DNA from: a virus
Strand: one strand, 5' to 3'
IMG/VR virus record: IMGVR_UViG_3300045988_099717
Location: 82,967 to 146,966 of that record
Length of the DNA: 64,000 bases
Both the position numbers and the translations under genes were made by a program. Below the pieces are notes generated by a model. That model did no database searches, was not told where the DNA came from, and was given only the letters and a program-made list of their open reading frames with translations. Shown one piece after another: positions 2,773-64,000 of this stretch (positions within the stretch are counted from its first letter, which is position 1; the number at the start of each line of letters is the position of its first letter).

Positions 2773-5700
2773 TAATAACATAGATAGATATAATCCTGCT
2801 GCTAAAACCACTTACGAAGATGTGGCAAGGCAAAGGAAATTAGCTGAAGAAGAAAATTACACTCCGGCTACATTACCAGAGACGACAACGCCTCTGGTTC
2901 CTAATTATATGCCTGGTGAAGGTGTGTATGCCCAACCTAAATTTCCAGATTATGCATCAAGGATAGCTGCTGCCGAATACGAAGAGCCGTATATAGCCAA
3001 GGAGATAAGCAACAGTTACTCGGAGGCACTGGCCCGTAACAGCTACAGGGGGGCTACACCTGCCCCGCCGCCTCTTAATCCCTATGGACCGAAGGTAAGT
3101 ATCCGTGAAAGTCATCAGATGGGTAATGATGGGGTATGGCGTACAAAATATCCCAACTATATTCCGGGTATAAACAATGAAGATTATTATGCCAGGAGAC
3201 AGAGCGGATGGAGTAAGTTTTGGAATGGTGTAGGCAAATTCGCTTTAAAATCCGCATTGTACGGTGCACAAGGAGTTGTGTCATTGCCTGACAAACTTAT
3301 CAATATGGCATCTGAGGGAAGTTACAAAGCTGCGTTAAACACTAACATGGATAAGTTTGTAGGTGATCTTGACCAGCAAATAGACATGCTTCTTCCCCAT
3401 TATTACAAGAAAGAGGTAGAAGATTATAATTTCGGTCAGAAGCTTTTTAAGGATACCGGTAATTTCTTATGGAATGATGTCCTTGGTAACGGAATGTCTT
3501 TTACCGTAGGAGCCATGATATCAGCGTACATGACCGGAGGACTTGGAGTTGGATCATTGGGCAATATAGGTGCTAAATTAGGTGGAAGAATCGGAGCTAA
3601 GTTAGCAGCAAGGCAAGCTGCAAATAGGGGTATAGGAAGCCTTAAAAGCGTGTTTAATGACTATGTAAGAAAAGGAGTTGCTACCGGAAGAAATGTAGGG
3701 GAGGCGGCTAAAACCATGACGTTGTTGGCTACCAGTGCCGGATTCGAGTCATCGGTTGAAGCAAATTCTTTTATGAAGCAATCTGAGTCTGATTTCAAGG
3801 ATTATTATCGTAAGATTTATGGTCGTGATCCCAATGCAGAGGAAATGGCTGTTTTTCGTAATTTTAATGCTGATGTAGGTAGTGCTATATTTGCCGCCAA
3901 TATGGGTATAGTAGGATTATCTAACTGGCTTCTTTTTGGTAAGTATATAGGGTTAGGAGGCAAGGCTATACCAGGGTTGGAAAAGAAGCTCAACAAGCAT
4001 TTATTTGGATTAGGGACGGAAGTTGCGAAGCCGGGAGAGATGGCTATTAAAATAACCAATCCCAATATAGGACAAAAGATAGCAGGCAATGTTTTCAATA
4101 TCATGAAAAGGCCGGTGTCCGAAGGCTTATGGGAAGAAGGATCTCAAGGTGCTGTTCAGAATACGGCTGAGGAATATGTTAAGTCAAGATATGATAATGT
4201 AGCCATGAACGGAGCCGTTGATGTTCTTGATGCTATTTCTGAAGGATTTAAAAAGCAATATACGTCTAAAGAAGGATGGACTGAAATAGGAATCGGTGCT
4301 ATTATCGGTTCTTTGTTTGGTATGAGGGAAGGCTTCTTTGGGGTTAAAGAGTATAGCAATAGTCAGATCTTGCTGGAAAGGCAAGTGAATGAATACAACA
4401 AAGCATCTTCTAATCTTAACACGGCGGCTTTGAATACGTTGAAAAAATCAATGAGTTTAGGGCCTCAAGTTCGTTCCGATGCCCAGTCTATGACTGGCAA
4501 GGAGCTTGATGATGCTATGTTTGAAAAGATGTCTATTGACAACCAAATGGGAACCTTAGAGGATTCGGCTGAAAATTTTAGGCAGATGATTGATATGATG
4601 CCTATTTCGGAAATAGCCGAAGCTAATGGAATGTCTTTGGAAGAGGCAAAGAAATACAAGGATTCTATTATTGATAATTATAACAATCGTCTTTCGGATT
4701 TCAGATCTGCCCAGAGTTTTGCCGAAGATCTTATAGGTGATGATTCTAAGATTGAGTTTAGGAAATACGTGGCTCGTAATGCCTTCCTTGGTCTTCAATC
4801 AGAATCAAGAATGAAAGACATAGCTTCTGTCATAGAAACGCTTTCGGGGCAGCCTCGCGTGGCGGATGCTCTAAGTACGTTCTCCCGGCTGTCGGACAGG
4901 GCAAGGGAACGGGCGATGGCTATCCGTGGCATACGGTCAAGAATAGAAGAACTTGAATCCGAAATAGAAGATCTTGCTACCCGCCCTCGCAACGTAGAAG
5001 GGAAAGATCCACAAGCTGAATCCATACAACGAAAAACCAAAGAATTGGAAAGCCTTAGAACCAATTACAATAATTCGTTGTCTGAGTTATCAACGTTAAT
5101 AGGAAAAGAGTTTTCGATAGAAGAGCTGGTAAGTAAAACCGAATCTGTTTTATCATCTCCTCTTTCTCCCATAAGTTCACAAGATGTGATAGAAGCCTAT
5201 GATACGCTTGTGGCTTTTGATGATTATTTTAATGTAAAATCAAGACAGGAAAAGAAGTTTACAGCCAAAGACAAAGCCATGAGATCCTTGGTAAATGAAT
5301 ACCGAAGAAGTTTGATGGACTATAGGAATATGAATAACTTCTTGTCTAAGATGCTTGATAAAAGATTCTTAGCTGAGGAAAACAGGGGGTTTTCAAAAGC
5401 GCTGTCTTCTCTATGGTCTACTCCTTATAAAGGGGATGACAAGGTTCCTGATTTTGCAGAGTCTAATAAAGTTGGTGAATATGACACTGATGAGGTAGTA
5501 GATCAAGCTGTGTCAGAAGGTAAGATTTCGGAAGACGAAGCTTGGACTATCAAGGCTTTTATGCATGCTCTTGATAAAGTAAGGGAAGATAGGATGAAGG
5601 AAGCAGAAGATGATATAAAAGAGTCACCGCTTACGGAGTCTGTATCGGATGAAGATTATGAGGCTGCTATGGATAATCCTATTATGGTTCCGGCCGTAAG

Positions 5701-59375: not shown

Positions 59376-60344
59376 TCATGGAACCTCTATCTTGTCGAAG
59401 TCAATGCCGTGTTCGTTCATGAAGTTGCCGAGAGCGATAATATTTTCACGGGTTGTTGTGACCTTGAAGGCACGAGTTAGAAGTTCCGGCTGTGCCGGCA
59501 CAGGCTGTTCTTTAGGCTGATCCATAAAAGAAGGTTGCCTATTCATCCTTTGATTAGCCGTATTAAAAGGATTGGGTTGGCTAACTTTGGGTTGTTCTGC
59601 TTCTACTTTCTTACGTGCTTCTTCCTGTTCTTTTCGTTCCTGTTCAGCTTTGATACGTGCTTCTTCTGCTGCTTGGGCACGTTCGCGTTGTTCCTTCAGA
59701 CGATTAGCATACTGGATGGTATTGCCAATGTTCATCGTGTCCATATAGTATGTGCGAAGTACGTCAAAATCATCACCGCCAAAGCCTTTAAGCGTTTCAA
59801 GATCTTCGTCAACCTTAGCGAAAACCGTTTCAATGTCTGCTTGTACCGCTTTCATGCTTGTGGACTTGTTAAGCCATTCCTGCTTGAAGATTTTCCGAAA
59901 GTCGATCAGAGTCGTATTTCCATCGTCGAAGTAGGAACGGATAACGGCAAGTTTCTTGTCTTTATACTGCTGTTCGTTCTGCTTGACTACCGTGTCAATC
60001 TTGGCAGAGCATTCGCCAATCAATTTTACGGTTTCAGCCACAACTTCCTTGAACTCCCCGAAAGGTTTCATAAATTCCTTTTCGATTTCAAGACGTTTTG
60101 AGTTGAGAAGTTTGGCCGCCTTGTTGAGAGCAGCTTTATCTCTCTTCGCTTGGTCGATATTGTCATCGTTATAGTTAGATATATCGTACATGGGAAGAGT
60201 TGATTTTACCATGTCTCTGATTTGGATCGCATTAGTAGTAAGGCTACCTAATGTTTTTTCACTAACGACCAGTTCAAGATCGCTTTCTTTGATTGCTAAT
60301 TGTGTGTTCATTTCTCTATATTTTTTATTAGTCCCATCCACCAT
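59376..60344 (-). CDS. Hypothetical coiled-coil protein
   Basis: 322-aa ORF. The K/E-rich central region is encoded by a local GC-rich patch. Confidence 0.5.
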   Translation of the reverse strand: MVDGTNKKYREMNTQLAIKESDLELVVSEKTLGSLTTNAIQIRDMVKSTLPMYDISNYNDDNIDQAKRDKAALNKAAKLLNSKRLEIEKEFMKPFGEFKEVVAETVKLIGECSAKIDTVVKQNEQQYKDKKLAVIRSYFDDGNTTLIDFRKIFKQEWLNKSTSMKAVQADIETVFAKVDEDLETLKGFGGDDFDVLRTYYMDTMNIGNTIQYANRLKEQRERAQAAEEARIKAEQERKEQEEARKKVEAEQPKVSQPNPFNTANQRMNRQPSFMDQPKEQPVPAQPELLTRAFKVTTTRENIIALGNFMNEHGIDFDKIEVP

Positions 60345-60993
60345 TATTATACATGGATAAATCGGCAGAATCTAAATCCGTTTTCTGAATAGCTTCTAAA
60401 AGTTTTTTCTTGGTTTCCCGACACATGTCATAACCATAGCCTTTGTACCGGTATGTACGCTCCCATGTGCTGATTGGGAAAGGAATATTTTCGTCAATGA
60501 CCAGCCTCTTCATATGAAGATGTTCGAAGAATTTCTCATGATAGAGTAGTTTGTACTCGTATGCTACTATACTTGCAGATGAGAATGGAAAATAATCATC
60601 TTCCTTTTCTTCGTATTTAGGCTCCTTATAGTAAGCCATTTTTGCCACAGTAAAGTCGAAGCTCCTGAGAATCTCTTCTGGCTTTCCGAACTCTGACTCT
60701 ATGAACTCTACCCATACCTTTTCTCCCTCTTTCTGGAATGCGCATACCTTCTCATTCCTATACTTAAATTTCCATCCTTCTTTCTGATGTCTTCCTTCAT
60801 TGAACAAATTAACAGCTTCCTGAAAATCGCTTTCACTTTCAAAGAAAATATCAATGTCTTTTACTCTTTCTCCGGAAAGGATATTCTTAAAACATCCTCC
60901 GGCAATGAATCCTTTATGACCTTCCATGTATTTGTCAAGCCATCTTATTTGCCCAAAATTGTCAGGTGTATTTTTCTGATAGTTAGTTTCCAT
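60328..60993 (-). CDS. Polymerase-beta-superfamily nucleotidyltransferase (CCA/poly(A)-polymerase head-like motif)
   Basis: FIAGGCFKNILSGERVKDIDIFF follows the hGG..R..L.G...KDIDI pattern of tRNA nucleotidyltransferase and poly(A) polymerase head domains. A later acidic residue lies in SFDFTV. Confidence 0.4.
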   Translation of the reverse strand: METNYQKNTPDNFGQIRWLDKYMEGHKGFIAGGCFKNILSGERVKDIDIFFESESDFQEAVNLFNEGRHQKEGWKFKYRNEKVCAFQKEGEKVWVEFIESEFGKPEEILRSFDFTVAKMAYYKEPKYEEKEDDYFPFSSASIVAYEYKLLYHEKFFEHLHMKRLVIDENIPFPISTWERTYRYKGYGYDMCRETKKKLLEAIQKTDLDSADLSMYNNGGWD

Positions 60994-61669: not shown

Positions 61670-62538
61670 AACAGGGTTTTTTGTGAGGGTTGTTTACTAT
61701 CCGTCTCTGCTTTTTCAACCGGGTATGGTTGCTGTTCTTCCATTTTTTTTTGGACGGCTGCTTTGCTTGCCAGATCGGCCAGCTTGTTTTTTGGCTTGAT
61801 TTCTTCATATTCGACATCCTGTATGTCGTCAGCTTCTTCTTTAGTCAAGAATCCCATGCTGATTTCAGGACAGTACATACGTTGCCAGAATGCAGCAGCA
61901 CGATAAGTAAGCATAAGGCTTGGCATTGTAACCCACTTGCTACCGGTTTTTGTATACCATCCTTCCTTAATTGCCGTTTCAATCGTTATAGGATCGGATT
62001 CAAGTGTCTCCCCTGTAGAAAGTTCAGTTGCGTAGGCAATACATTCAATGTTGTCAACATCTGTACCGTCAAACTCTTTTACCACTATGGTATTACGCTT
62101 AGCAACATTATCCCAAACCGTTTCGTTATATTTGATCTTTCCGACCTTACCGAGACTTCGTTTTCGGTATCGTAGGGATGAATATTTACCACTCATGTTG
62201 ATGGTAGCAATAAGGAATTTGCTCGACCATGAGGGGTTGCCCTTGACAATGTAAAGGTTTTGCATGACCATCAGCGAATTCACGCCCATACGTGTTGCCA
62301 TATCAATCGCAATCACACAGTTGCCAACATTGCCTTTATAGGCTTCTGGTACGATTGTGCTTTCCGTGTACATCTTTGCCATGCGTTGCATGACCTCGAA
62401 CTGTTTCACCATCTGTCCGACCGGAGTAAGTGCAAATTCGGCAGCTTGTTTTGCCTGGGTAATCTGCAGTTCTGTTGTTTGAATCTGTTGTTCCATTATT
62501 ATACTGTTTTTAATGTTGTTCGTTTTTGTAAGCCTCAT
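61666..62538 (-). CDS. recT: RecT-family single-strand annealing protein
   Basis: A RecT-like core (...TESTIVPEAYKGNVGNCVIAIDMATRMGVNSLMVMQNLYIVKGNPSWS...) translationally coupled to the YqaJ exonuclease gene. Confidence 0.6.
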   Translation of the reverse strand: MRLTKTNNIKNSIIMEQQIQTTELQITQAKQAAEFALTPVGQMVKQFEVMQRMAKMYTESTIVPEAYKGNVGNCVIAIDMATRMGVNSLMVMQNLYIVKGNPSWSSKFLIATINMSGKYSSLRYRKRSLGKVGKIKYNETVWDNVAKRNTIVVKEFDGTDVDNIECIAYATELSTGETLESDPITIETAIKEGWYTKTGSKWVTMPSLMLTYRAAAFWQRMYCPEISMGFLTKEEADDIQDVEYEEIKPKNKLADLASKAAVQKKMEEQQPYPVEKAETDSKQPSQKTLL

Positions 62539-62818
62539 ATACGATGCCGATGGCGGAAAGGATCTCCTCCAGCCTTATGCATTTTCTTTGATAGTCACAT
62601 GCAATAATTATGTTATTCTGTGCTTCCAATGCGTATTCAACGAGCTCTCCGTGGCTCATCGCCTGCAAGTCTTCTTTTGTTTTCATTTGCTATGTTTTAA
62701 TAGTTGTACGTGTTCATTTCAAACCTCCAATCTTCCAACATTTCGTCGAATTCTGGATCATTGGTTTCTTCTCCGTCGTAGCAAAGATCGCCGTCCGGGT
62801 TCTTGATGTAGATCTCCT

Positions 62819-62968
62819 TCATTTCCGTTCCTCCTTATGTATTGCATATAATAAGGAAAGGCCACATGCAAAGAAGAGAACAAGGGAATAGTTGTAGAAC
62901 ATCCCGACACCACTGCCTATTGCCATAAGCAAGGCCATCACAAAGATGATTTTGTTTTCTGTTTCCAT
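62819..62968 (-). CDS. Small membrane protein with two transmembrane helices
   Basis: The ATG at 62968 gives METENKIIFVMALLMAIGSGVGMFYNYSLVLFFACGLSLLYAIHKEERK. The track ORF begins at GTG 63019. Confidence 0.4.
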   Translation of the reverse strand: METENKIIFVMALLMAIGSGVGMFYNYSLVLFFACGLSLLYAIHKEERK

Positions 62969-63002
62969 ATCGTTGATTTTTAAATTTGTTTCAAAAAGGA
63001 AA

Positions 63003-63031
63003 CCGTATCTACCTGTCACAGGCCGATACGG
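63003..63031. repeat. Conserved hairpin element, copy 1 (stem ccgtatc/gatacgg)
   Basis: tcaaaaaggaaaccgtatc-loop-gatacgg. The 21-nt left flank is nearly identical to that of copy 2 at 63319-63347. Confidence 0.5.
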
Positions 63032-63318
63032 CGATATTACTACTTATTCTAAACCAATAAAAAATAACTGAGGCCAATCGCGGACTCGATCCGCGTGTAA
63101 ACCCAGGTGAGCTTTTTAGGCGAGACACGTTGATATAATTAAAATTTTCACCTTGTTTATTTGGCCGCCCAACCATCTCTAAGGCGGAATAAATATTTCT
63201 TTCATATCAATGTTTGTTATGTGGCAATACGGTCTTCTTAACCAACCACCGCAAGGATACCCGGATAGGGATTGCCACGAGTTATATAGTATGGAAATAA
63301 AAAGAGTCAAAAAAGAAA

Positions 63319-63347
63319 CCGTATCGGCTTGTCGCAAGAGGATACGG
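63319..63347. repeat. Conserved hairpin element, copy 2 (stem ccgtatc/gatacgg)
   Basis: tcaaaaaagaaaccgtatc-loop-gatacgg. Confidence 0.5.
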
Positions 63348-63418
63348 ATAAGTTGGTTTTGCCAACTTCGTTAGCTGTAAACAATAAAAATTAAAGAATT
63401 AGTTGAGTAAAAATTTGT

Positions 63419-63463
63419 CCCCGGCAGCCGATCCGATCGACAGCTTCGCGCCTTTGTACCGGG
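63419..63463. repeat. 45-nt structured repeat, copy A (cccgg...gccgatcc...gcgcctt...ccggg)
   Basis: About 73 percent identical to copy B at 63859-63903 and in the same orientation. The ends can pair (cccgg/ccggg). Confidence 0.5.
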
Positions 63464-63504
63464 TTTTCTTAACTTTGTAGTGTCAAATCAAAAAAATTAA
63501 GAAA

Positions 63505-63693
63505 ATGAGCAAGTTTATTGAACTAAATTCTGGGAAAGACAAATTTATCGTGAATGTTAATTCTATTTCTTATGTCGAAAGAAGCGACTTGTCTGGTTCT
63601 GTTGTGCATTTTGCCTATTCAAGATCGGATGCTACTGCTGTTTTGTATGTAGATCAAAGTCTTGATCAGATCAGGGAATTAATCGCTGAATAA
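63505..63693 (+). CDS. Small hypothetical protein
   Basis: 62-aa ORF lying between the two copies of the 45-nt repeat. Confidence 0.4.
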   Translation: MSKFIELNSGKDKFIVNVNSISYVERSDLSGSVVHFAYSRSDATAVLYVDQSLDQIRELIAE

Positions 63694-63858
63694 TTCTTTC
63701 TTCCGGAAAACGGGGATTCCTATGATATAAAGGGTTGTTACCTGTTCTGCAATGTGCATTTCTTTTTTAAAGGTTTCCCCGATTCTTACTTCACGTAAGC
63801 GTTTTGTCTTTACTTCTTTTTGAATAAGTACTTTCATAATCACGTTTTTTAATTCGTT

Positions 63859-63903
63859 CCCGGAGGCCGATCCAATCAGCAGCGTAGCGCCTTCATGTCC
63901 GGG
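63859..63903. repeat. 45-nt structured repeat, copy B
   Basis: cccggaggccgatccaatcagcagcgtagcgccttcatgtccggg. It lies inside the doubtful minus-strand ORF 63679-63966. Confidence 0.5.
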
Positions 63904-64000
63904 ATATATCTTATTCGTAACGACGGTTGACCAACTCCATGACCGAGTAACACCGAAAGGGATCATCTGAAAGATGAACGTTACGCGTCACAACCTCACA

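Follow-up and report, generated by a model that had tools for sequence, protein, structure and literature searches.

The region at positions 62940-63910 of the analysed window (a 64,000-nt stretch of viral DNA) probably forms the control region before the leftward (minus-strand) early genes of a temperate Bacteroidales phage; we put the probability of this reading, taken jointly with the mechanism proposed below, at roughly 55%. The two repeat families and both additional hairpins of the original prediction were recovered at their predicted positions, in excess of chance, and all of them appear to read best as minus-strand RNA. The region had been placed at the end of a replication block; instead, it lies upstream of a minus-strand block, at the start of a leftward operon. 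It belongs to a very common gut Bacteroides prophage: the exact sequence of a 62-aa protein encoded in the region was found in >11,000 assembly blocks, by which count human gut assemblies carry the module extremely often. The features are as follows.

62819..62968, minus strand: 49-aa hydrophobic ORF (METENKIIFVMALL...) from the ORF list, first gene of the leftward early operon
62991..63031, minus strand: predicted terminator t2 (Family 1 copy 1), hairpin 63031->63003 followed by UUUCCUUUUUGA
63032..63306, minus strand: conserved structured leader (RNAalifold, covariation, identity to the relative L152)
63072-63166, minus strand: long-range leader domain, closed by GGCCAA/UUGGCC
63079-63095, minus strand: leader hairpin CGCGGA/UCCGCG, by direct reading
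63164-63187, minus strand: leader hairpin CCGCC..GGCGG
63205->63179, minus strand: mini-ORF MKEIFIPP* in the leader
63221-63278, minus strand: leader helix GUGGCAAU/AUUGCCAC, enclosing a 34-nt block at 63229-63262
63307..63347, minus strand: predicted terminator t1 (Family 1 copy 2), hairpin 63347->63319 followed by UUUCUUUUUUGA
63367..63401, no strand assigned: decayed second copy of the candidate divergent promoter region (CCAACTTCGTTAGCTGTAAACAATAAAAATTAAAG), by alignment to L152
63412..63468, minus strand: Family 2 copy 1 (CM match of 75.1 bits, Y-shaped minimum-free-energy fold, pair counts)
63464..63505, both strands: candidate overlapping opposed promoters (motif scan, inverted repeat)
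63470-63477, plus strand: candidate rightward -7 box TAACTTTG
63491->63484, minus strand: candidate leftward -7-like box TTGATTTG, deviating from TAnnTTTG
63505..63693, plus strand: 62-aa ORF encoding a small, beta-rich protein (AlphaFold2 pLDDT 91)
63679..63837, minus strand: 52-aa basic ORF (MKVLIQKEVKTKRLREV...), convergent with the 62-aa ORF and overlapping it by 15 nt at the 3' end
63851..63908, minus strand: Family 2 copy 2 (CM match of 73.2 bits), P1 formed by 63903->63897 with 63865->63859

The 49-aa gene was called in 10/10 near-identical loci. It is followed by 41-aa and 58-aa ORFs and then, as assigned by Pfam matches, by RecT-like, YqaJ, Gad2-like, DUF1351, DUF4494, VRR-NUC and further genes. 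An AT-rich intergenic region with repeats, adjoining recombination and replication genes, is also where a second replication origin might lie, the repeats serving as iterons or DNA hairpins. An iteron origin has at least three close direct repeats by an AT-rich element, whereas each family here has only a pair of copies (spacings of 316 and 439 nt) and forms no tandem array. The wobble pairing is strand-asymmetric, the U-tracts are conserved, and the GC skew shows no local switch at the region beyond the gene-strand change at ~30 kb; the proposed second origin is therefore highly improbable. Searches with an nhmmer profile for each family and with a CM returned two copies of each, and none further in the 64-kb window or within 10 kb past its end in near-identical relatives. 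Related genomes preserve the elements and show compensatory changes in them, contrary to what had been named as refuting the original prediction. A tRNA-Met gene lies on the same strand, ~240 nt upstream of Family 2 copy 2.

The Family 1 box TCAAAAARGAAACCGTATC occurs at 62991-63009 and 63307-63325 (2 matches versus 0.01 expected); both predicted copies are present, but the box is 19 nt long rather than 21. The hairpins CCGTATC..GATACGG were found as claimed at 63003-63031 and 63319-63347, and the whole 41-nt units are 80% identical. The two parts are not a binding box and a hairpin; the box complements a U-tract and the 3' stem half of a predicted intrinsic terminator on the minus strand. We infer that the two Family 1 units are Rho-independent terminators, each with a 7+4-bp hairpin and a U-tract. 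Both t1 and t2 combine a stable, G+C-containing hairpin with a 3' U-rich tract, as intrinsic terminators do. The t2 hairpin consists of a 7-bp outer stem, a 2x2 internal loop, a 4-bp inner stem and a UGA loop, with a fold energy of -18.7 kcal/mol (z = -3.7); the value for t1, upstream hairpin included, is -19.2 kcal/mol (z = -3.5). Among eight sequences, 98.9% of cells pair in the minus sense and 4 pairs change on both sides, and six cells are G-U in the minus but C.A in the plus sense. All eight sequences keep the U-tract, L152, L154 and L033 among them, and no T-run follows either hairpin on the plus strand. In L033, a related hairpin and U-tract closes the leftward lysis operon and so appears to be in use as an ordinary terminator. 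In the window, t1 and t2 lie upstream of the leftward early operon and bracket a leader of ~275 nt, t2 ending 34 nt ahead of the AUG of the 49-aa ORF.

This leader is conserved to the same degree as the neighbouring genes (72% nucleotide identity to L152, compared to 69-76% for the genes and 53% for the flank), and the 34-nt block within it is unchanged in a relative with ~70% identity in its genes. RNAalifold gave -73.65 kcal/mol for the minus and -64.15 kcal/mol for the plus sense, the minus sense being better by 9.5. With three sequences, two of which are close to each other, 96% of cells pair and 14 compensatory pairs are seen, versus 0-3 in slid controls. Direct reading bore out both additional hairpins, cgcgga-ctcga-tccgcg where it had been reported and gccgcc-N13-ggcgg at 63164-63187. 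Two ORFs across the leader, one of 54 aa on the plus strand and one of 52 aa starting with TTG on the minus strand, were rejected, as both are broken in L152 and L154 (the former by TGG->TGA). A scan of viral contigs with the conserved blocks of the leader returned only window-type, L154 and L158 sequences; other matches to AACCAACCACCGCAAGG in viral contigs are chance or Shine-Dalgarno-like sequences in unrelated phages.

A strongly structured, conserved segment flanked by two terminators could also be a small-RNA gene in its own right, transcribed from a separate promoter as far as t2 and acting as an immunity or regulatory RNA like P4 CI or P1 c4, in which case t1 would merely terminate an upstream transcription unit. 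Just past t1 there is a sigma70-like TTGACT-18-TATAAC (63310->63281, minus strand), with TTGAAT-18-TATAAT in L152, and if it served as the leader promoter the leader would be an independent small RNA. There is also a weak Rfam resemblance to the Bacteroides small RNA GibS (RF04182), at 26 bits far under the gathering score of 115 and covering only t2 and its flank. However, to our knowledge the housekeeping sigma factor of Bacteroides is not known to use TTGACA/TATAAT-type promoters, the motif scan of the window and L152 found no TAnnTTTG-type box on the minus strand within the leader, and the early operon would be left promoterless. The original suggestion of small-RNA genes thus keeps a place for the inter-terminator segment, although with no Bacteroides-type promoter inside it we consider this rather unlikely.

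The promoter consensus in these bacteria is reportedly TAnnTTTG. The only boxes of this type found by the motif scan are the opposed pair at 63470-63491, and none occurs after t2. Both -7 boxes lie inside a 13-nt inverted repeat, TTTTCTTAACTTT / AAAATTAAGAAAA (I10), which falls outside the two predicted families and is a reasonable operator candidate. In L152 the box is perfect on either strand (TAACTTTG at 3965-3972, TATGTTTG at 3987->3980), in support of a candidate promoter region at 63464..63505. The L152 promoter region aligns with 63367..63401, not with 63468-63501, and L152 is without a Family 2 copy there (copy 1 of the window). The stretch at 63367..63401 thus appears to mark the junction where Family 2 copy 1 and the promoter module were inserted or duplicated relative to L152.

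As predicted, Family 2 is present in two copies of the same orientation, at 63420-63463 (44 nt) and 63859-63903 (45 nt), with 2 matches versus 0.00 expected; they are 79% identical across 43 aligned nt (63412-63454 / 63851-63893) and flank the 62-aa ORF together with the convergent 52-aa ORF. Each forms a three-helix junction in which P1 (7 bp) abuts P3 (6 bp) and P2 is short. In copy 1, which lies between the candidate leftward promoter and t1, P1 pairs 63463->63457 with 63426->63420, P2 is a short hairpin and P3 is GUCGAU-CGG-AUCGGC. The fold of copy 2 has z = -2.07 in the minus and -0.42 in the plus sense. Over all sequences, 163/169 cells pair in the minus sense versus 146/169 in the plus sense; 17 of the cells owe their pairing in minus-sense RNA to G-U alone and would be mismatched in the plus sense. 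Because these wobbles favour pairing in the minus sense, Family 2 would work as minus-strand RNA. Covariation is seen at P1 positions 4-7 and P3 positions 2-4, with a score reached by 0/500 shuffles.

CM matches of 46-77 bits were obtained in window-type, BS-TP3-type, L152, L170/L171, L178 and Prevotella lineages. Family 2 is conserved with covariation in at least seven Bacteroides and Prevotella phage lineages, the sample being about 7 lineages. A scan of genome contigs gave 35 matches, one of them real (Prevotella L119) and the rest chance matches in high-GC genomes; of two metagenome scans for further variants, with known variants excluded, one was empty and the other gave chance matches only. 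Rfam release 15 has nothing at gathering score in the whole window, and at E <= 10 only chance-level matches in 62800-64000, none overlapping either Family 2 copy. The distance from Family 2 to the next leftward AUG is 21, 22, 21, 22 and 21 nt in window copy 2 (where the AUG is that of the 52-aa ORF), BS-TP3, L152, L119 and L170-B, and the intervening sequence is not conserved among them. For L170-A the distance is 43 nt. In window copy 1 and in L178 the element is followed by a terminator, with no AUG at 21-22 nt.

The minus-strand translations of the two copies are similar (KGAKLSIGSAAGDKF and EGATLLIGSASGNEL), and a 95-aa ORF spanning copy 2 (63679-63966) is called in most loci, as might be expected if the copies were relics of a duplicated coding sequence. 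This is scarcely credible, however, since copy 1 sits in a stop-bounded 27-codon frame from which a start codon is absent, a 1-nt indel separates the copies, and the peptide is not preserved in other lineages although the helices are. The 95-aa ORF is an over-extension through copy 2; the real gene downstream has 52 aa, a form called in L002 and L010, and its 53-aa homologues in BS-TP3 and L152 start at the equivalent AUG. Annotation should be corrected accordingly, for both the 95-aa ORF and a 103-aa "LytTR" ORF of BS-TP3 run through the Family 2 motif.

The 62-aa protein has very few relatives by word-index and exhaustive HMMER searches, of which only P0013 (61% identity), P0018 and P0022 were useful; its BS-TP3 homologue is annotated as LytTR-type. 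Pfam and PHROGs gave no assignments for the small neighbouring ORFs. Geometrically, the model comes closest in the PDB to the LytTR domain of AgrA (TMq 0.64, rmsd 2.7 A), a match that is not significant (E = 0.4), and the predicted structure may represent a truncated LytTR-like fold. Such a protein, or a CI-like repressor, could use Family 2 and/or the promoter inverted repeat as DNA operators, and the original prediction had proposed the small ORF as a possible regulator binding to the repeats. In the window, BS-TP3, L170 and L178 the rightward -7 box does have a B-type copy 6-10 bp upstream of it, P3 is near-palindromic as DNA, and AAGTTAAG / AATTAAG half-sites occur on both sides of the promoters (I10). 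However, a LytTR operator consists of imperfect 9-bp direct repeats ~12-13 bp apart upstream of the regulated promoter, and Family 2 has no such pair. Moreover, P1 pairing is kept while its sequence changes, which a DNA operator would not need, the G-U cells would be mismatched in the plus sense, and A-type copies have no adjoining promoter. A LytTR-like gene is missing from L170 and L178, yet Family 2 is kept in each, with L170 retaining both copies around an unrelated gene pair; Family 2 is therefore not an operator specific to the 62-aa protein, and the operator reading as a whole is improbable. The gene pair between the copies, 62-aa plus convergent 52-aa in the window, appears to be exchangeable.

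The arrangement suggests the following order of events. Leftward transcription would start at the promoter at about 63484-63491, which overlaps the rightward promoter of the 62-aa gene head-on. The transcript would pass through Family 2 copy 1, and the polymerase would then reach t1, transcribe the conserved structured leader, and meet t2, 34 nt before the first early gene. Since no promoter fits after t2, the early operon, with its recombination and replication genes, would be expressed only by read-through of the two attenuators, and this dependence would keep it shut in the lysogen. Family 2 would be a separate, portable module found in leftward leaders at both edges of the exchangeable two-gene cassette. 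It may be recognised by a factor of host or phage origin, such as an RNase or an RNA-binding protein, which would set or shield the 5' end of the message that follows, or control its translation.

Such a post-transcriptional leader module is the favoured function of Family 2, the main rival being a nut/put-like antitermination signal through which the polymerase, alone or with a factor, would resist t1, t2 and later terminators, and early-gene expression would then depend on Family 2 RNA. The order promoter, Family 2, t1, leader, t2 in the window fits such a signal, and an independent case is L178, where the promoter is followed by Family 2, an unrelated hairpin with UCUUUUUU, and the early AUG. 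These two copies, standing between an early promoter and the first terminator, fit antitermination better than a translation or processing signal. In L152 the sole copy is upstream of both terminators on the same strand, and two copies per phage on leftward transcripts recall the nut sites and the put sites of HK022, likewise RNA elements present twice per genome. On the other hand, window copy 2, BS-TP3, L170-B, L119 and L152 have the AUG at 21-22 nt with no terminator between (21-43 nt when L170 is taken as a whole), whereas a signal modifying the polymerase needs no fixed AUG spacing. Both copies are on the same strand, in which they also differ from lambdoid sites, and L152 transcripts from the nearby leftward promoter would be without Family 2 altogether. 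boxB is a 5-bp stem with a GNRA-like pentaloop, and nut requires an N-type protein. Family 2, with its 3-nt loops, resembles boxA/boxB, qut or the two-stem put in neither sequence nor structure, and Pfam and PHROGs revealed no N- or Q-like gene among the small neighbouring ORFs. We therefore give antitermination a minority chance, tentative but real.

Promoter-close intrinsic terminators before strong operons of temperate phages have counterparts in the lambdoid pR'-tR' (6S RNA) and in tL1/tR1 past nutL/nutR. The RNase III sites of the T7 early transcript and the lambda N leader are likewise irregular stem-loops on one polycistronic transcript, just upstream of genes. RNase P-cut, tRNA-like punctuation in the P1 c4 and P4 CI precursors likewise lies in or near an immunity region. 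The sole feature that Family 2 shares with a tRNA acceptor/T-arm minihelix is the direct stacking of P1 on P3 without a linker; in contrast to tRNA, the P3 loop has 3 nt and is not a T-loop, and the 3' tail is N-AC-R rather than NCCA. ARAGORN reported no tRNA in the window and nothing at Family 2.

It is conceivable, though quite unlikely, that Family 2 and the 275-nt leader constitute a previously unrecognised RNA-based lysis-lysogeny switch in abundant gut Bacteroidales prophages. In one form, RNA polymerase could become processively resistant to termination through the RNA itself, with no N- or Q-type protein involved. In another, a "punctuation" minihelix could be cut by RNase P/Z, leaving early messages with a fixed 21-nt leader, which might suit Shine-Dalgarno-less translation in Bacteroidetes.

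Our literature search found no description of early-gene control in Bacteroides prophages, and nothing relevant on this region, on LytTR in Bacteroides prophages or on csAssE; the induction of phage BV01 has been called enigmatic in the BV01 paper. The present map offers testable elements, namely two promoters that face and overlap each other, a pair of attenuators, a structured and conserved leader, and a portable RNA motif that is common to Bacteroides and Prevotella phages and absent from Rfam, and it could provide a handle for engineering or inducing such prophages.

The PeSL cassettes of T4-type phages, in which a hairpin and promoter module edges small exchangeable gene cassettes, offer a further parallel. 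Copy 1 and the promoter module are present in the window and absent from L152, and the gene pair differs between the window and L170. Family 2 differs from PeSL in its covarying three-helix interior, which a recombination linker would not need, and in its orientation to the promoter. A simple hairpin with a TTAACTTTG module was seen at another cassette junction, at 11066-11108 of L008.

Direct reading of positions 62400-64000, together with a repeat finder, recovered all four elements of the original prediction: two families of repeats and two single hairpins. The conserved Family 1 box is present, but is 19 nt rather than 21 nt long.

Repeated and structured elements of the region
62991-63031 and 63307-63347, minus strand: Family 1 units (80% identity between units, repeat finder), with internal hairpins at 63003-63031 (t2) and 63319-63347 (t1)
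63032-63306, minus strand: the ~275-nt leader between t1 and t2
63079-63095: GC hairpin
63164-63187: gccgcc..ggcgg stem-loop
63412-63464 and 63851-63903, minus sense: Family 2 units, copies 1 and 2 (79% identity over 43 nt), with closing stems at 63420-63463 and 63859-63903

Degenerate patterns for Family 1 and Family 2 gave 2 matches each, compared to 0.01 and 0.00 expected, and the repeats are not due to chance. A profile search of the window, and of the 10 kb past its end in near-identical relatives, found no third copy of either family. Coding is on the plus strand up to ~30.2 kb; from 30.3 kb to 62968 the genes are on the minus strand. The region had been placed at the end of this minus-strand block, and is instead upstream of it. 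The last minus-strand genes, the early operon, encode a 49-aa hydrophobic ORF (62819-62968), two tiny ORFs, RecT-like, YqaJ, DUF1351 and DUF4494 proteins, and others. The elements are structured and conserved as proposed, but in place of regulator boxes or an origin they are better read as predicted terminators and leader RNAs on the opposite strand.

Read on the minus strand, each Family 1 unit is a hairpin with a YGA loop, in which a 2x2 internal loop separates an outer 7-bp stem from an inner 4-bp stem, and UUUCYUUUUUGA comes directly after it (fold energies ~-19 kcal/mol, z ~-3.6). The conserved box therefore corresponds, in complement, to the U-tract and the 3' half of the stem. Eight distinct sequences were compared: the two window copies, population variants, both copies of L152 (a relative with 61% identity in the 62-aa protein), the related locus L154, and a hairpin from a further locus, L033. 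Pairing is found in 98.9% of cells, four pairs change on both sides, six G-U cells would become C.A mismatches if the plus sense were read, and none of the eight has lost the U-tract. In L033 the hairpin stands at the end of a leftward lysis operon, indicating its use as an ordinary terminator. Family 1 is predicted to be a pair of leftward terminators, ordinary in kind.

The segment between t1 and t2 is predicted to form a structured RNA and is conserved: window, L152 and L154 sequences can be aligned across the whole of 62991-63347, with a 34-nt block (63229-63262) identical in 3/3. Nucleotide identity between the window and L152 is 72% in the leader, 69% in the 62-aa gene, 76% in the 52-aa gene, and 53% in the sequence flanking Family 2 copy 2 on the right. 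RNAalifold gave -73.65 kcal/mol for the minus sense and -64.15 for the plus sense; in the minus-sense structure 96% of cells pair, and 14 pairs change on both sides, compared to 0-3 with slid partners. Both single hairpins fall within this structure and covary: CGCGG/CCGCG in the window becomes UACAG/CUGUA in L152, and CCGCC/GGCGG also changes in step. A further helix, GUGGCAAU/AUUGCCAC (63221-63278), shows a G-C to A-U change in L152 and L154. Longer ORFs spanning the leader are broken in relatives. An 8-codon mini-ORF (63179-63205, minus) encodes MKEIFIPP-stop in the window and MKERNIPP-stop in L152, with the codons for Pro-Pro and the stop making up the 5' arm of the CCGCC..GGCGG hairpin. 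The product may serve as an attenuation leader peptide; with just two distinct versions, this is a lead rather than a finding.

The main sigma factor of Bacteroides uses the -7 motif TAnnTTTG. The plus strand carries such a box at 63470-63477, 28 nt ahead of the 62-aa AUG, and the minus strand an equivalent one, TTGATTTG, at 63491->63484; both are perfect in L152. The predicted promoters face each other inside a 13-nt inverted repeat with predicted starts a few nucleotides apart, and simultaneous occupancy of both by RNA polymerase is improbable. No minus-strand TAnnTTTG box was found within the leader or in the 34-nt gap between t2 and the AUG at 62968, from which we infer that transcription can enter the early operon only by passing both terminators. 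What the analysis shows is the structures, with their strand, conservation and layout; in the model drawn from them, leftward transcription would start from a promoter at about 63484-63491, with t1 and t2 acting as two attenuators and the early operon depending on read-through. A sigma70-like sequence, TTGACT-18 nt-TATAAC (63281-63310, minus; conserved as TTGAAT-18-TATAAT in L152), occurs directly after t1, which is odd for a Bacteroides host because the main sigma factor there uses TAnnTTTG.

Family 2 is a predicted minus-sense RNA of three helices (P1-P3). In the minus sense, the window copies and the element of phage BS-TP3 share a Y-shaped minimum-free-energy fold, and the covariance model that they yielded detected further members (46-77 bits) in an uncultured Prevotella genome and relatives (L119, L169), L152, L170 and L171 (two copies each) and MT835900 (L178). 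Nothing resembling it was found in Rfam. With the register checked by hand, 163/169 cells in 13 distinct sequences pair in the minus sense versus 146/169 in the plus sense. P1 occurs as CCCGGUA, CCCCCAA, CCCCUGC, CCCUCUG and CCCGGCA, with a matching partner in each, and P3 positions 2-4 covary; the covariation score of the model alignment was equalled by 0/500 shuffles. Population variants preserve the helices, C->U giving U-G and U->C making G-U into G-C. The wobble asymmetry between strands and the P1 covariation both count against a DNA operator, which is disfavoured. The 62-aa protein has a confident predicted small beta-rich fold (pLDDT 91), for which the best superposition, the AgrA LytTR domain, is not significant; should it bind DNA here, the promoter inverted repeat would be a better candidate site than Family 2.

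Hairpins with the same outer flanks (GTTCCC...GGGAT; GGGAAC in RNA sense) and different interiors occur in L119 (about 2480-2545), L168 (2-47 and 557-616) and L008 (11066-11108), the last, at a cassette junction, being a simple hairpin of 12 bp with the same TTAACTTTG promoter after it. They suggest that Family 2 is one form within a broader class of leader hairpins.

The end of Family 2 lies 21 nt before a leftward AUG in window copy 2 (52-aa ORF), L152 and L170-B, and 22 nt in BS-TP3 and L119, with A/U-rich, otherwise unrelated spacers; the distance in L170-A is 43 nt. A predicted terminator, not an AUG, follows window copy 1 (t1) and the L178 copy (an unrelated hairpin and UCUUUUUU). These two would fit a nut/put-like antitermination signal, the main rival explanation, which does not fit the fixed AUG spacing. 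B-type copies, adjoining the promoter pair, lie 6-10 bp from the rightward -7 box. A-type copies, on the far side of the cassette, are without a recognisable promoter upstream, and are downstream of a same-strand tRNA gene in the window type and of a same-strand tRNA-like sequence in L152. The gene pair between the two copies varies: the window has genes of 62 and 52 aa there, L170 genes of 106 and 65 aa. We favour a post-transcriptional role, because the AUG spacing is fixed, the A-type copies would sit within longer transcripts, and Family 2 persists whichever phage proteins are encoded nearby. An RNase or RNA-binding factor would recognise the Family 2 module and fix or protect the 5' end of the next message, or gate its translation. 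P1 (7 bp) abuts P3 (6 bp) in a manner reminiscent of the acceptor/T-arm minihelix of a tRNA, which with the true tRNA upstream makes RNase P/Z punctuation an attractive variant of this post-transcriptional model, but the loop and 3' tail are not tRNA-like.

The phage-borne tRNA-Met (CAT; L008 10644-10720, window-equivalent 64148-64224, minus) is ~240 nt upstream of Family 2 copy 2 and on the same strand. By eye only, a tRNA-like sequence is present at the equivalent place in L152 (about 4588-4665).

Copy 1 is absent in L152 and the window keeps a decayed duplicate of the promoter region (63367-63401), indicating that Family 2 also marks mosaic junctions. Over-extended coding sequences were called through Family 2 in the window (95 aa, 63679-63966, minus; copy 2) and BS-TP3 (103-aa 'HTH LytTR-type', L011 3951-4262); the conserved genes beneath are 52 aa and 56 aa.

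The exact 62-aa protein (63505-63693) is encoded in >11,000 assembly blocks, including Mb-size contigs with SusC/SusD flanks, and so belongs to a very common Bacteroides-type prophage module. In this very abundant group of gut prophages, the leader and Family 2 would be uncatalogued RNA elements, and the way to their function by experiment is clear. Ten loci with the exact protein, >99% identical to the window end, reveal past 64000 the tRNA-Met (minus), a 98-aa gene and a variable immunity region with an S24 CI-like repressor and toxin-antitoxin pairs. Positions 36000-56300 match the replication block of a 151-kb phage, csAssE-Sib (OR575929.1), at 94.6% identity, and that phage is without the Family 1/Family 2 region. 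The genome is therefore mosaic, pointing to mosaicism on a large scale between common prophages and a big phage that looks virulent.

The 221-aa early gene (60328-60993, minus) gave no match at E <= 0.01 in our own Pfam scan; in L002 and L008, which are identical loci, it has a precomputed match to PF26128 (Gad2), suggesting that the early operon includes an anti-defence gene. L002 and L008 are otherwise identical but for an exactly inverted 4.03-kb immunity segment (L008 11373-15403, window-equivalent about 64877-68907) carrying the S24 CI-like repressor and a HigB/HTH toxin-antitoxin pair. The inverted repeat at its boundaries, CTAACATAATGTATATTAT, is 19 bp long and overlaps the start codon of an 80-aa gene, and the segment looks like an active DNA-inversion switch.
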